Below are positions 9,010 through 59,809 of a DNA stretch of 64,000 bases, piece after piece (position 1 is the first letter of the stretch; every line of letters starts with the position of its first letter). Origin of the DNA: Candidatus Bathyarchaeota archaeon (GTDB lineage: Archaea; Thermoproteota; Bathyarchaeia; TCS64); assembly GCA_963769425.1 (NCBI GenBank), contig CAVYLP010000006.1, forward strand, positions 480,001 to 544,000, given 5' to 3'. The translations under genes were made by a program, and so were the position numbers. The notes under the pieces were generated by a model that saw nothing but the letters and a program-made list of their open reading frames with translations, did no database searches and was not told where the DNA came from.

Positions 9010-9062
9010 AGCCGTGGATCAGGTTCCGATATCTCCTGTAGGATCGAGTCATGAATGCTGAC
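9010..9062 (-). other. 3' arm of the 23S pre-rRNA processing stem (pairs with 12063-12111)
   Basis: GAAGCCGTG..CAGGTTCCGA..GTCATGAATGCTGA is complementary to TCAGCATGAC..TCGGAACCTG..CACGGCTTC. Confidence 0.75.
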
Positions 9063-9065
9063 ATT

Positions 9066-12058
<2,993 letters not shown>

Positions 12059-12245
12059 TATATCAGCATGACCCGGTCCCACAGCTGGAGTCGGAACCTG
12101 TGCACGGCTTCATAGCCTCTTCGAGGGATTCCATCCCCCCGTGGCTCGCCCTTAGCCCCGCGAGCTGTGCTCGGGAGCCGCATATTGTGAGATTGATTTG
12201 GGTCGGGTAGTTACTTCCCCCGCATTCACTGCGTCGTTCTTTCTT

Positions 12246-13743
<1,498 letters not shown>

Positions 13744-14331: not shown

Positions 14332-14679
14332 TTGTCTAACAATGAGACTAAAACCGATGTGAGCCTCGGGGACCAATTCACGGTCCTCGTCTTGAAGGGC
14401 AAAGCGGATAGCCTGATTAGCAGGATGAAGGACGGGCGCGTAATTCTCTTTAACCGCGAGAACCCGATCTTTGGTGACCTTGAGCCGGGTATGCTCGTCG
14501 AGGTGAGGGTGAGCTTCATCGCACAGAACTACATAATAGTCGACCCCGTGGCGCCTCCTGAGAGCGGTGTCGAGGCAGTCAAGCTAGGTCTCCAGATGGT
14601 CTCAGAGACAGAGAACTGGGAGAATGCTGTGATGGCTAGAGCACTTCTCCACGTCATCGAGCAACTTGAGACCGATTAA
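14332..14679 (+). CDS. Hypothetical protein with a TRAM-like N-terminal beta domain
   Basis: GDQFTVLVL..G....DGRVILF....LEPGMLVEVRV pattern resembles TRAM; genome-typical codon usage. Confidence 0.55.
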   Translation: MSNNETKTDVSLGDQFTVLVLKGKADSLISRMKDGRVILFNRENPIFGDLEPGMLVEVRVSFIAQNYIIVDPVAPPESGVEAVKLGLQMVSETENWENAVMARALLHVIEQLETD

Positions 14680-14901
14680 TCCACATTTTTATTTTCATTT
14701 TTTTTAAATCACCCGATAGAATTGCTTGATGCGTTGATCGTATTAAATTACAAAATGACTTTCCTATGGGTTTACTCACTGAGTTGTTCATTTTTCTTGC
14801 TGAGTTAAAGTGAGGGGTAGATATCACCGATCCAGCCTCCTGATCGGGGCAATGTGATCCGGGTAAAAACCGGGTAAAAACAGGGTATCATGGACTCTCT
14901 T

Positions 14902-15075
14902 GTTCCAGGTAACATGGTACATGTTCCTAGTAGCGTGGAACAGATCGTTCCCAGTAGGGTGGAACATGCGGGTCCTTGATGCACGCGTGGTGTTCCGGGT
15001 AAGGTGGTACGTGTTCCTGGTAGCAGGGTACAATTGTTCCTAGCTAGATGGAACATGTTCCTAGTAGGACGGTAT
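14902..15075. repeat. Array of seven 19-bp quasi-palindromic units GTTCC-N9-GG(T/A)AY
   Basis: Units start at 14902, 14923, 14947, 14992, 15013, 15036 and 15057. Confidence 0.9.
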
Positions 15076-15230
15076 ATTGGTTTATCCACGTTTTTCATAA
15101 TTTTTCCTTACCCCTTCCAGTCGCTGCACCAGTAGAGGTGGGCTTTAGGCTGCCCGAGGACTGCGAGGTTCTGAAGGCATCTGACTAGCTATTCTCGTTT
15201 CGAGGCGTGCGGTTTTGTGAGGTGATGCGG

Positions 15231-15380
15231 TCAGAACGGTGTACCTACACTTGATCCAAACAGTTGGTTGATCAACCAGTTGGCCCCAGAGAGTAACATG
15301 AAGACCAAAACTGCGAAGGCTACAACGCCTACGACTGCGACGAGGGCTGGAACGAAGTGGCTTTCTCTCTCCTTGTTCAT
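15231..15380 (-). CDS. Small (49 aa) single-TM membrane protein, below the ORF-track cutoff
   Basis: MNKERESHFVPALVAVVGVVAFAVLVFMLLSGANWLINQLFGSSVGTPF; follows the upstream gene on the same strand. Confidence 0.5.
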   Translation of the reverse strand: MNKERESHFVPALVAVVGVVAFAVLVFMLLSGANWLINQLFGSSVGTPF

Positions 15381-39996: not shown

Positions 39997-40405
39997 TTAT
40001 TGGCTGAACGTTAATCTCATCTCGGCGACCGCGCCGGCCTTATTGCGCCCCTGTCGGGTAGGCCAAGCCTCCACGCTGGCGCCCCGGTCATCTTGTGGAC
40101 GGCCTCGGGGAGCGAGAGGGCGTCCCCACCCACGTAGCGCTGGAGGACGCGTGGGAAGGTGCCGAAGCTCCTCGGGTGCACCGGGGAGGTCAAGCCACCC
40201 CGCTCGGATGTCCCATCGGAACCTATCATGACCGCCTCGTGCCTCATTAGGACCCTGATGTCGTCCTCGAGGCCGAAGAGGCATGAATGGGACGTTATCG
40301 TCCTCGGTGACGATGATGTCGTATGCGGTGTCGATCGGGTCTCGCTTCAGCTCGTCTGCTATCTGCTTGACCGTCTTTCCGCTGTATGCCCGGTATGCTT
40401 CGCTC
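39997..40405 (-). pseudogene. N-acyl-D-amino-acid deacylase (D-aminoacylase) fragment
   Basis: GKTVKQIA..DP.D and MIGSDG..HPRSFGTFPRVL.RYV..LSLPEAVHKMTG.PA.RLGL.DRG.I in different frames; 5' part missing. Confidence 0.8.
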
Positions 40406-40426
40406 TCCAGGTAGCATGTTAACCAT

Positions 40427-40640
40427 GTGCCTGGTAGCTGGGTACCGGCGGTACCCACTAGCAGGGTACATGGTACCTAGTAGCAGGGTACAGGTGCACA
40501 TATCCGTGCAAGTTGGTACCCAGTAGGAGGGTACCACGGTACCTAGTAGCAGGGTATACGGTACCCTGTAGGGGGGTACGCGGTACCCAGTAGGGGGGTA
40601 TAACGTTTTTTCATTGTCTCTGTACCATGTAGCAGGGTAC
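40427..40640. repeat. Array of eight 19-bp quasi-palindromic units GTRCC-N9-GGTAY
   Basis: Units at 40427, 40451, 40473, 40516, 40539, 40561, 40583 and 40622; outliers at 39912 and 40764. Confidence 0.9.
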
Positions 40641-40859
40641 CGCAATTTTCCGCGTGTCTGTTCCCCGTCGGGAAGGTGTGGTGCGTAGCTGGTTGTGTGT
40701 GTATTCCTCGTAGTTTAGGTATCGAAAAAAAACGCCATTTTTGTACCTGCCAATAGGAATCAGATTCCTAGTAGGGTGGTATGGCTCATTGGCTGAACTC
40801 AATTAATTCTATCACATCGGACAATATCCTTAATCCGGCTGATAGGCTCATAGACCTCA

Positions 40860-55059: not shown

Positions 55060-56442
55060 TTATTGGCTGTTTTGCCCCGGTTTCTGGAGGTGCCAGACGC
55101 ACCGCTGCACGACCTCGGATAGGGCCGGATGGATGTGCATCGAGTCCACGAGGGGGTAGACCGAGCCGTCGCCCGCGTTCATCGCGACTATGACCTCGTG
55201 TATGAGGATGGGGGCCTGTGGGCCGACTATGTGGCAGCCGAGTATCTTGTATGTCTTCTCCTCGACGAGCATCTTAACGAAGCCCTCCTTATCCCCCATC
55301 GCGTCGCCGTATGCCGTATCTGAGAATGGGTAGACGCTGACGAGGTACTTCAGACGGCGCTTAGCGGCCTCCTCTTCGGTTATGCCCACGCCGGCGACCT
55401 CGGGCCAGCTGAAGACCGCGTAGGGGACCTTGTCGTAGTCGAGCGCTTGCCTGTGGCCGTCCTCGTAGGCGTGCCAAACGAGCTCTGCCTCCCTGTTTGC
55501 CACGTGTTTGAACATGGCCTTTCCCGTTGCGTCACCGAAGGCCCAGATGCGGGGCTTCGAGGTCTCGAAGAACTCGTTCACGGTGATGTAGCCGCGGTCA
55601 TCCGCCTTCACCCCTGTTTTCTCGGTCTTGAGGATGTCTGAGTTTCCCCTGAGGCCCGAAGCTATGAGGAGGGTTTCGGCCTCTATGGTCTTCTCGCCCT
55701 TCGCATCGGCGACGGTCACCGCTTTAATTCCCCTCATTTCGGTGACGCTCTTCACCTCGGTGGATGTGAGGATGCTCATGCGTGTGCCCAGGGCTCGTGT
55801 GATGGTCTCGCCTATCTCTGGCTCGGTTTGGCGGAGGAGGGTTGGACTTCGGCTGATTATCGTGACCTCAGCACCGATGGCGCTGAAGAAGTGGGCGAGC
55901 TCGCACGAGATGTACCCCCCGCCTGCTATGATCATGCTCCTCGGCGGAGCCTCTAGGTCGAAGACGTTCCTGTAGGTGAGGTACGGCACGTTCTCGATGC
56001 CCTTGATCGGGGGAATCTCCGGTCTCGCCCCGGATACGAGAAAGATATCCTTCGCCTCGATGGTGTCCTCCCCCACCTTCATCTTATAGTCGCCGACGAA
56101 TTCGCCCTGCAACGGGTAGTAGGTTAAGTTAGGGACCTTTGATACGCTCTCCTCCATGTGGTGCCTATCGTGGCCGACGCTGGCGCGCATCCTCTCCATG
56201 ATGGCTTTGAAGTCTATCTTGTCGATGGTCGCTTTGACGCCGAGGGCGGAGACACGTCTCGCTTCCTGGACGACGTCAGTGGGGTAGATTATCATCTTGC
56301 TGGGGATGCAGCCCCTGTTGAGGCAAGTGCCGCCGAGTGGGTCCTTGTCGACGAGGGCTACCCTGAGCCCCTTGTTTATTGCACCCTCAACGATGGTCAT
56401 GCCTGAGCCGGAGCCGACCACGAGGACGTCGAAGCGCTCCAT
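55060..56442 (-). CDS. Dihydrolipoamide dehydrogenase-family flavoprotein disulfide reductase
   Basis: GSGSG, GGTCLNRGCIPSK, GGGYI, HIHPALSE. Confidence 0.9.
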   Translation of the reverse strand: MERFDVLVVGSGSGMTIVEGAINKGLRVALVDKDPLGGTCLNRGCIPSKMIIYPTDVVQEARRVSALGVKATIDKIDFKAIMERMRASVGHDRHHMEESVSKVPNLTYYPLQGEFVGDYKMKVGEDTIEAKDIFLVSGARPEIPPIKGIENVPYLTYRNVFDLEAPPRSMIIAGGGYISCELAHFFSAIGAEVTIISRSPTLLRQTEPEIGETITRALGTRMSILTSTEVKSVTEMRGIKAVTVADAKGEKTIEAETLLIASGLRGNSDILKTEKTGVKADDRGYITVNEFFETSKPRIWAFGDATGKAMFKHVANREAELVWHAYEDGHRQALDYDKVPYAVFSWPEVAGVGITEEEAAKRRLKYLVSVYPFSDTAYGDAMGDKEGFVKMLVEEKTYKILGCHIVGPQAPILIHEVIVAMNAGDGSVYPLVDSMHIHPALSEVVQRCVWHLQKPGQNSQ

Positions 56443-59032: not shown

Positions 59033-59809
59033 TCACCAGGCTGTATAGCCTCCATCGATCAGGATTGTCGATCCTGTCACGTAGCTGGAGGCTTCCGAGG
59101 CGAGAAATATCGCAAGTGGCGCTAATTCCTCTGGTTTACCGGGGCGTCTCATGGGTATGCTCTCTATCCAAGTGGGGCCATACGCGGGGTCGTCGAAGGC
59201 TTTGTGAGTCATCGCGGTGTCCATGTAGCCAGGAGCGATAGCGTTGACCCTGATGTTATATGGCGCCCATTCGACGGCGAGGCTCCTAGTAAGATGGATG
59301 ACGGCGGCTTTGGAGGTGTTGTAGCTAGCTTGCGGCTGAGGGTGGTTTACTATGTAGCCTGACATGGAGGCTATGTTGATGATGCGGCCTCTTCGCTGCT
59401 TTATCATCTGACGCCCTGCGGCTTGGCTGCAGTAGAATAACCCATTGAGGTTGACGTTGATGACGTCTTCCCAGTCCTTCTCTGTTACGGACTCGGCTGG
59501 GCACCATTTCGTGATGCCCGCATTGTTCACAAGGAAATCTAAATGCCCGAATCGCTCAACTGTCTTCTCAACCATCGCCTCAATGCTTAATCGGTTCTTC
59601 ACATCGGTCTCGACGAAGAGGGCCTCACCGCCGTTTGTTTCGATCTCCTTGGTGGTCTCTGGGCCTGTGTCTGGGTTGAGTTCAGCGACTACAACTTTGG
59701 CCCCCATTTCAGCGAATGCTAGGCTGAATACCTTGCCGAGTCCTTGTCCTCCGCCCGTGACTACGCCTATTTGTCCCTTTAATGAGAACTTGTCTAATAG
59801 AGCTCCCAC
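59033..59809 (-). CDS. SDR family oxidoreductase (sugar/polyol dehydrogenase-like)
   Basis: TGGGQGLG, NNAG, SMSG..VN.PQ.Q..YNTSK. Confidence 0.92.
   Translation of the reverse strand: MGALLDKFSLKGQIGVVTGGGQGLGKVFSLAFAEMGAKVVVAELNPDTGPETTKEIETNGGEALFVETDVKNRLSIEAMVEKTVERFGHLDFLVNNAGITKWCPAESVTEKDWEDVINVNLNGLFYCSQAAGRQMIKQRRGRIINIASMSGYIVNHPQPQASYNTSKAAVIHLTRSLAVEWAPYNIRVNAIAPGYMDTAMTHKAFDDPAYGPTWIESIPMRRPGKPEELAPLAIFLASEASSYVTGSTILIDGGYTAW

Follow-up and report, generated by a model that had tools for sequence, protein, structure and literature searches.

What is the series of seven short, regularly spaced palindromes that lies upstream of the ribosomal RNA (rRNA) operon of an uncultured archaeon, and how did it come to be there? 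The series, termed array 1, occupies positions 14902 to 15075 of a 64,000-nucleotide stretch of a Candidatus Bathyarchaeota genome (assembly GCA_963769425.1, contig CAVYLP010000006.1, positions 480,001 to 544,000); this whole stretch is referred to as the window. A sequence-only reading had proposed either a cooperative protein-binding array of the iteron, origin recognition box (ORB) or centromere type, or a multi-hairpin RNA. From comparisons with the rest of the source genome (G000; 2.55 Mb in six contigs, C1 to C6, 91% complete) and with its relatives, we give an even chance to another answer: array 1 would be a relic copy of a virus-derived repeat family, made up of the multiplied operator- or packaging-like dyads of a decayed virus-like element. 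A chromosomal origin of replication or a centromere is improbable.

The physical description given by the sequence-only reading is borne out by the letters of the window. The seven units start at 14902, 14923, 14947, 14992, 15013, 15036, and 15057, each spanning 19 bp, with 5-nt arms around a 9-nt spacer (GTTCC-N9-GGWAC/T) and start-to-start steps of 21, 24, 45, 21, 23, and 21 nt. Unit 7 terminates in GGTAT. On the plus strand, the spacer follows the oriented core N-R-G-T-A-R in six of the seven units, the exception being unit 6 (TAGCTAGAT), and the preceding (CCGGGTAAAAA)x2 is present at 14859..14880. A repeat finder run on the window reported a 25-nt unit six times and a 42-nt two-unit repeat three times. 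The claim that the array is neither a simple tandem repeat nor a CRISPR array holds in its CRISPR part, as the units are 19 bp long with linkers of 2–5 nt, whereas a CRISPR would have identical repeats of at least 24 nt and unique spacers of about 30 nt.

The motif is far more frequent than chance would provide. The pattern GTTCC-N9-GGWAC has 10 matches in the window, counted with palindromes scored on both strands and made up of six array 1 sites and one at 55966, versus 0.30 expected, and none of 100 shuffled sequences reached 10; unit 7, with its GGTAT end, is missed by this pattern. When the spacer length was varied from 0 to 20 nt over the whole genome, 43 matches were obtained at 9 nt and 2–16 at every other length.

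Array 1 belongs to a repeat family that is scattered over the chromosome. The repeated element as a whole measures 322 bp (14859..15180) and comprises the 11-mer pair, the seven-unit array, an A/T-rich box, and a gene stub. In blastn searches against G000, it recurs at C1:235535-235856 with 95% identity, including the same 11-mer pair, and copies of 72–74% identity are found at C4:9727, C4:107731, and C6:260094. On the plus strand of the window, the seven units (RTWCC-nn-GTAG-nnn-GGWAY) are arranged as a pair, a single unit, a 26-nt gap, and two further pairs, and the unit order is repeated in five other arrays. With the looser core CC-nn-[GC]TA[AG]-nnn-GG, 17 clusters comprise at least three units, versus 0, 0, and 1 in three shuffled genomes, and 35 comprise at least two; the latter merge into 30 loci. 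When ten family members were used as blastn queries, 29 loci of 47–881 bp were counted, 10,682 bp in total, and no family locus is long enough for a gene. That array 1 is one of these 29–30 loci was out of reach of the sequence-only reading.

The sequence logo derived from about 100 clustered units is RTWCC-ta-GTAG-srk-GGWAY. In 95 of 100 units, GTAG occurs at the third and fourth core letters, and the core is constant across arrays that vary in their arm letters (GTTCC, GTACC, GATCC, or ATTCC). The steps between neighboring units over the genome (82 pairs) are 21–24 nt in 41 pairs, 39–45 nt in 20, and 64–66 nt in 13, so that the unit period is about 22 bp, that is, two helical turns. The arrays in G000 hold 2–14 units, and at composite loci the modules are stacked in one orientation. 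Counted by locus, the two orientations occur in a ratio of about 17 to 9, which is not significant; the 29:2 ratio of match counts reflects a few large arrays.

The flanks of the family point to a particular gene junction. Read on the minus strand, the order is a stub of a gene termed Y, the A/T box, the units, and then, at other loci, a stub of a gene termed X. The Y stub of the window copy (15117..15194, minus strand) corresponds to the last ~26 codons, contains an in-frame stop, and has no start codon; in tblastn comparisons, it is 62–65% identical to the Y of relatives over 26 aa (E 1e-5 to 1e-3). Gene X is absent at the window copy, and the C1 twin carries both stubs. In G000, Y stubs of 21–57 aa are present at at least nine loci, and X stubs or X genes (starting MRxYIFTxxERRxL...) at seven; no intact Y was found in this genome. 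The Y of relatives encodes a 506-aa protein in which an ABC-ATPase is joined to a GNAT acetyltransferase (ABC_tran, E 7e-12; Acetyltransf_1/10, E 2e-4; phrog_293, E 3e-36), and it is followed by X (81–100 aa, no family), an 85-aa coiled-coil protein (CC), and the terminase large subunit (TerL; Terminase_6N, E 3e-9; phrog_2, E 3e-35). The order Y-X-CC-TerL was seen in the congener G006, in G018, which belongs to another genus of the same family, and at five loci of family f4.

At this junction, the intact elements of relatives carry a single dyad. In G006, an intact Y is followed by about 50 nt that contain CGTTATAA and the dyad ATGGG-CTA-CCCAT, and then by X-CC-TerL. In G018, GGAATTACA-AGCTACC-TGTAATTCC lies about 49 nt before X, and in the congener G002 a frameshifted, near-complete Y precedes an A/T box, after which come one or two CTAC units and then X. 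At three of the f4 loci (L003, L006, and L008), a perfect 26-bp palindrome (TCATGTTAATGGA / TCCATTAACATGA) lies about 51 nt before X, inside the 3′ end of Y, and at the other two (L002 and L007) TGGAAAA-A-TTTTCCA stands at the same place. A dyad about 50 nt before X is thus constant in these elements, and its sequence is lineage-specific. The arrays of G000 would then be multiplied CTAC-centered dyads.

A putative promoter adjoins the first unit. On the minus strand of the window, A/T-rich boxes resembling the B recognition element and TATA box (BRE/TATA) face the array at 15071..15107 (GGATAAACCAATATACC, with GGAAAAATTATGAAAAAC just upstream) and align to the family motif AAAAAACGTTATACC, given in the direction of X. 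At seven loci the AAAAAACGTTATACC box directly precedes the first unit and at four it is displaced inward by one unit, and its TATA-like part overlaps the arm of the first unit. It resembles the BRE/TATA boxes upstream of the transfer RNA (tRNA) genes of G000, such as GAAACGTTTAAAT and GAAAAGTTATATT, and by this match to the consensus it is a candidate promoter. The family has features expected of an operator or iteron array, namely the ~22-bp phasing, a BRE/TATA-like box by the first unit at at least 11 loci, and a start of X beyond the array at seven; it also has a feature expected of a pac or cosB site, in that the units have their place in the packaging gene cluster, upstream of the small genes that TerL follows.

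These comparisons suggest the following sequence of events. The family would derive from the control region between Y and X, where X heads the X/CC/TerL cluster of a head-tail virus-like element. The single dyad about 50 nt before X, CTAC-centered in family f1, would have been multiplied in G000 into phased arrays that sit just downstream of the BRE/TATA-like box. The units would be binding sites for a dimeric protein of the element, with X and the C-terminal end of Y as the closest candidates. Sitting every two turns on one face of the helix, this protein would occlude the promoter, acting on an operator, or would mark the DNA for packaging. The window copy, which has no X and a truncated Y, would presumably serve no host function.

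Several points weigh against this account. At the f4 loci, the gap between Y and X is only 11 nt, and the dyad is a different one that lies inside the 3′ end of Y and has no CTAC. G000 itself carries, at C2:93766-95196 (locus L037 8275-10194), a stand-alone X, CC, and an intact 498-aa TerL, without such an array upstream. X has no recognized DNA-binding fold: its predicted model (predicted local distance difference test score, pLDDT, 84) consists of an extended N-terminus and two helices, for which the best structural matches (Foldseek E 6.4; VIA-align Z 4.1) are generic helical hairpins. Gene conversion among units, and not selection, could keep the arms alike, and the substitutions between pairs of copies are mixed, with 0/84, 3/84, 3/98, and 9/98 in arms plus core versus 6–25% elsewhere, in a test that is biased since the units were defined on one sequence. 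The stubs end at different points, which is hard to square with a clean mobile unit and with simple decay alike. Finally, the survival or spread of the same junction at ~30 sites, with up to 14 units, goes unaccounted for, which leaves room for a selfish-repeat reading or for a trans-acting one in which the arrays serve as decoys or in packaging.

The X family comprises at least 310 cluster representatives, and searches with X gave no Pfam, PHROG, NCBIfam, or PDB sequence match, the best PDB profile match (FADD, E 0.089) not being credible; a protein atlas search with X also returned no usable match. None of the 27 pattern matches to X relatives in viral contigs or of the 292 in metagenome contigs was confirmed. 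The C-terminal 119–120 aa of Y have no Pfam match; in the alignment, the end of Y (...L-x-x-L-x-V-L-[SG]-Q-x-K-A-Y-L-Y-W) could be read as a helix-turn-helix. Around the C2 island lie ordinary host genes (for cytochrome-c-maturation-like membrane proteins), and neither a portal nor a capsid gene is near it; the island may have been domesticated or may be all that is left of a provirus. A second TerL of G000, at C6:24122-25423 (locus L183 12122-13423), is broken into two pieces of open reading frame (ORF), and 13 other ORFs of the 20-kb stretch around it gave no match to virus structural proteins.

The units lie directly in the interval that has the ABC/GNAT gene on one side and, on the other, the small genes preceding TerL. 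This also accords with a terminase recognition site of the pac or cosB type, in which the units would be bound by the small component with which the packaging machinery recognizes DNA and the chromosomal copies would be leftovers or pseudo-pac sites. Salmonella phage SSU5 (NC_018843.1) offers a parallel, as it encodes ABC-ATPase and acetyltransferase-like genes 40–42% identical to Y over ~70% of its length. The gene order there is two ParB-like genes, the Y-related genes, a gene for a DNA-binding protein, and TerL (99817-103237 and 134-2034). Enterobacterial phage-plasmids and these archaeal elements have this order in common. The set spans the ends of the linear SSU5 record, which fall within the interval in question, although the start of the record may be arbitrary. 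Terminase_7 (small subunit) matches were obtained for 3 of 70 X-family members, the best at E 0.05, but all are weak and far under the curated cut-off, and the intact elements have one dyad and not an array. We regard a terminase site as unlikely.

The pattern of conservation bears on whether the units act as DNA or as RNA. In an alignment of six arrays, with categories set from the unit coordinates of the sequence-only reading and identity taken between the window copy and four distant copies, the arms have an identity of 0.89, with 54 of 70 columns invariant. The short linkers follow with 0.77 and the GTAG core with 0.68; values of 0.45, 0.46, and 0.50 were obtained for the other spacer positions, the central 26 nt, and the sequence outside the array. 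This pattern fits double-stranded dyad sites that a dimeric protein would contact along one helical face. Together with the ~22-bp spacing over the genome, the conservation of the arms (0.89 vs 0.45–0.50) upholds the part of the earlier proposal that saw a phased, probably protein-binding array.

The other part of that proposal, a multi-hairpin RNA with conserved 9-nt loops, found no support. The middle arm position pairs in 48 of 100 units and is T·T in 32. In minimum-energy folds of either strand, arms of different units pair with one another and the 5-9-5 hairpins are unused, and an Rfam search of 14600-15300 gave no match at E up to 1. In a rival reading, a minus-strand transcript of ~200 nt would run from the BRE/TATA-like box through the seven units to the far end of array 1 and would titrate a protein through its repeated CUAC motifs. 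There, (CCGGGTAAAAA)x2 reads on the minus strand as two T5 runs, which may act as an archaeal oligo-T terminator. In both the window copy and the C1 copy, the array thus stands between a box like a promoter and oligo-T runs. The folding z-scores of –3.0 and –3.4 would also agree with a structured transcript, but they are similar on both strands, as for any DNA palindrome. The other arrays have no T runs, the pairing, folding, and Rfam results count against such a transcript too, and we consider it quite unlikely.

The comparison with relatives indicates that the family is confined to a narrow lineage. A pattern of two adjacent units has 31 matches in G000, three in the congener G002, and none in the other 39 of 41 genomes, many of which are fragmented assemblies where repeats often drop out; the reversed control pattern has a single match over all genomes searched. 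The left edge of the insertion site is a host gene outside the element (14332..14679, plus strand, 115 aa), which is present in 10 of 17 congeners searched with 83–98% identity and for which a domain search gave a weak TRAM match (E 0.19) and an NCBIfam search no family. Three of the ten loci with this gene also align to the right flank of the window, and the array is missing from all three. In G008, whose flanks are 77–88% identical, the same two genes lie 277 bp apart, and in G012 and G015 the gap holds a dehydrogenase-like gene on the other strand. Relative to the three syntenic congeners, array 1 thus is an insertion in a narrow lineage.

A stricter two-unit pattern gave six loci in metagenome contigs, one of which (L180) is the orthologue of the C6:260 kb array with one unit missing, and the other five are GGTACC/GGTAGG simple repeats. 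A three-unit pattern gave six loci in viral contigs, all unrelated coding or simple repeats, and at least 117 stretches in genome contigs, mostly bacterial among the matches listed, which is uninformative. Metagenome contigs that correspond to the window copy are ~85% alike to it and are possibly paralogues or come from relatives; in those of three of four metagenome DNA runs, 66 bases are skipped (14945 to 15012), and one contig has a single 11-mer copy, with 11 bases left out at 14859. No such arrays are described in the literature searched on Bathyarchaeia proviruses and terminases, on MITEs (miniature transposable elements with inverted repeats) and intergenic repeats, and on insertion sequences (supplementary files excluded). 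Term look-ups in PMC11697101 and PMC10848311 returned no mention of them either. Within this literature, the arrays appear to constitute a lineage-specific family of phased dyads with no earlier description.

A number of these observations would also be expected of a selfish, non-autonomous mobile repeat of the MITE or repetitive extragenic palindromic (REP) type, in which the units would be transposase or recombinase sites and the Y and X stubs would be hitch-hikers. The family consists of ~30 short non-coding loci in two congeners, is inserted relative to other relatives, stacks its modules in one orientation, and varies in unit number, as seen in the 66-base skip and the missing unit of the metagenome contigs. 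In addition, the unit can be re-parsed as GTAG followed by a GGWAC-nn-GTTCC palindrome, which is like the layout of REP sequences, and 5 of 30 loci lie within 2 kb of tRNA genes versus 1.9 expected (P 0.04), an excess that is weak at best. The features of a mobile unit itself are lacking: the ends of the window and C1 copies show no terminal inverted repeats or target duplications, the stubs vary in length (21–57 aa) and have ragged ends, the unit hairpins are weak, and no locus, at 47–881 bp, could encode an enzyme. PF01797, the Y1 transposase of the IS200 type and of REP-associated tyrosine transposases (RAYTs), has no match in G000, and units are likewise absent from the 2.9-kb locus of its single match in G002. 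MITEs and RAYT-dependent elements were rejected on these grounds, and a mobile repeat of this type seems rather unlikely. As a separate observation, the C1:235535-235856 twin has two divergently oriented tRNA genes (Glu and Met, C1:234911-235162) at a distance of ~370–420 bp.

The minus strand of the window carries a 16S-23S operon at 9054-13743, with the 5′ end of 16S at 13743, and array 1 starts 1159 nt upstream of this end. The earlier figure of ~1 kb from the rRNA promoter would be compatible with this. The array is not tied to the operon: it recurs elsewhere, and the conserved gene 14332-14679 lies between it and the 16S 5′ end. It was also correct that the window contains no cdc6/orc gene: the single Cdc6_C match of the genome is on another contig (C1:24396-24674), and no unit-like motif is present in C1:21501-28000, ~3 kb around it.

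Captured extrachromosomal origins are known in archaea, and the cumulative GC skew has a shallow minimum at 490–500 kb of the contig. This dip is local, 0.1 deep, and no larger than other wiggles, and it coincides with the minus-strand rRNA operon. The arms have TTCC and GAA in common with mini-ORBs, but in array 1 these letters lie 10 nt apart (GTTCC-N9-GGAAC), whereas the mini-ORB in the accessible part of PMC1904270 is a 13-bp dyad, for example TTCCAGTGGAACT, with TTCC and GAA close together. The loose likeness to the archaeal ORB drawn by the sequence-only reading, which itself noted a longer spacer, does not extend to this arm spacing. A SegAB centromere was likewise rejected, as the SegB core AGA[GC]TCT is absent from 14857-15075; the consensus TCTAGA-S-TCTAGA with the core AGA-s-TCT is described, in the part of bioRxiv 10.1101/2025.02.07.637068 that was available, as occurring mostly singly and inside genes. 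With the wrong spacer, ~30 loci, an absence from the syntenic site in all three relatives, no SegB core, and no units near the only orc1/cdc6, a chromosomal origin or centromere at this site is highly improbable, and the iteron reading found no support either.

A repeat within a coding sequence can be set aside almost entirely. A 97-aa minus-strand ORF (14805-15098) does span the array, but a Pfam search at E up to 1 found nothing for it, the reading frame is lost at the 23-nt step, homologous arrays differ by 1-nt deletions inside units, and the arrays at other loci contain only short overlapping ORFs on both strands. These results indicate that the array is not the repeat of a conserved protein.

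The unexplained persistence of the copies can also be read as a sign that the host keeps and expands them to act in trans, either as decoys that titrate a regulator or terminase-recognition protein and so confer immunity, or as packaging entry points for the X/CC/TerL island in the manner of a gene-transfer agent. The decoy version would apply to a genome in which, at 91% completeness, a crude k-mer scan (22-mers at least four times at 50–90-nt spacing) gave no CRISPR array. We consider a role in trans very unlikely; if true, it would be a new kind of defense or gene-transfer aid.

The same family has further copies in the window. A second composite array on the plus strand (40420..40810) contains eight GGTACC-armed units, a AAAAAACGTTATA box, and further modules, and lies directly upstream of the minus-strand ORF 39997-40458. 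A two-unit cluster is present at 59221-59297.

Overall, these findings remove a tempting false lead, since they give no archaeal origin or centromere beside the rRNA operon, and document, in an uncultured archaeon, phased dyad arrays that form a family of their own lineage. They link a chromosome-wide repeat to a region of head-tail virus-like elements that may serve in control or packaging. The array is a concrete DNA probe for the protein that would read the units, and the family may serve as a marker of past virus traffic where only long-read assemblies keep such repeats.

Among known systems, multi-site operator and centromere arrays are represented by parC/ParR of plasmid R1 and by the heptad arrays of the omega repressor of pSM19035. 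Array 1 resembles them in having short repeats of variable number, phased on one helical face and located at, or directly behind, a small gene's promoter, and dimers would be expected to bind it cooperatively. It differs in that its units are 19-bp dyads with an oriented GTAG center, in that the candidate X is predicted to have neither a ribbon-helix-helix nor another known fold, and in that the family has chromosomal copies at many places, flanked by broken genes. In phage lambda, repeated R sites form cosB beside the gene for the small terminase, gpNu1. The repeated sites of the present family likewise belong to the interval directly ahead of the small genes that precede TerL, and the relatives and SSU5 have the same neighborhood; the intact relatives, however, have one dyad and the X family is not a recognized small terminase.

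The remaining systems share the palindromic character of the units. In REP sequences, a GTAG tetranucleotide stands next to a palindrome that forms imperfect hairpins. Like REPs and bacterial interspersed mosaic elements (BIMEs), the units here are dispersed, intergenic, and palindromic, occur in arrays, and have GTAG adjoining the palindrome if re-parsed; unlike them, they have 5-bp stems with a frequent T·T mismatch, point one way instead of alternating, are flanked by stubs of virus genes, and lie in a genome without a Y1 transposase, in contrast to the REP/BIME elements with RAYT transposases and the REP doublet-forming hairpins (REPINs). ORBs and mini-ORBs have TTCC and GAA in their arms and clustered copies in common with array 1, and differ in a spacer of ~3–4 nt versus 9 nt here (PMC1904270, in its accessible part); the present family, moreover, has ~30 loci, does not lie beside orc1/cdc6, and is not conserved in position. 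The SegB sites, as presented in the available part of bioRxiv 10.1101/2025.02.07.637068, are palindromes scattered over an archaeal chromosome like those of G000, whereas the units of the present family, without AGA-s-TCT, form intergenic arrays.

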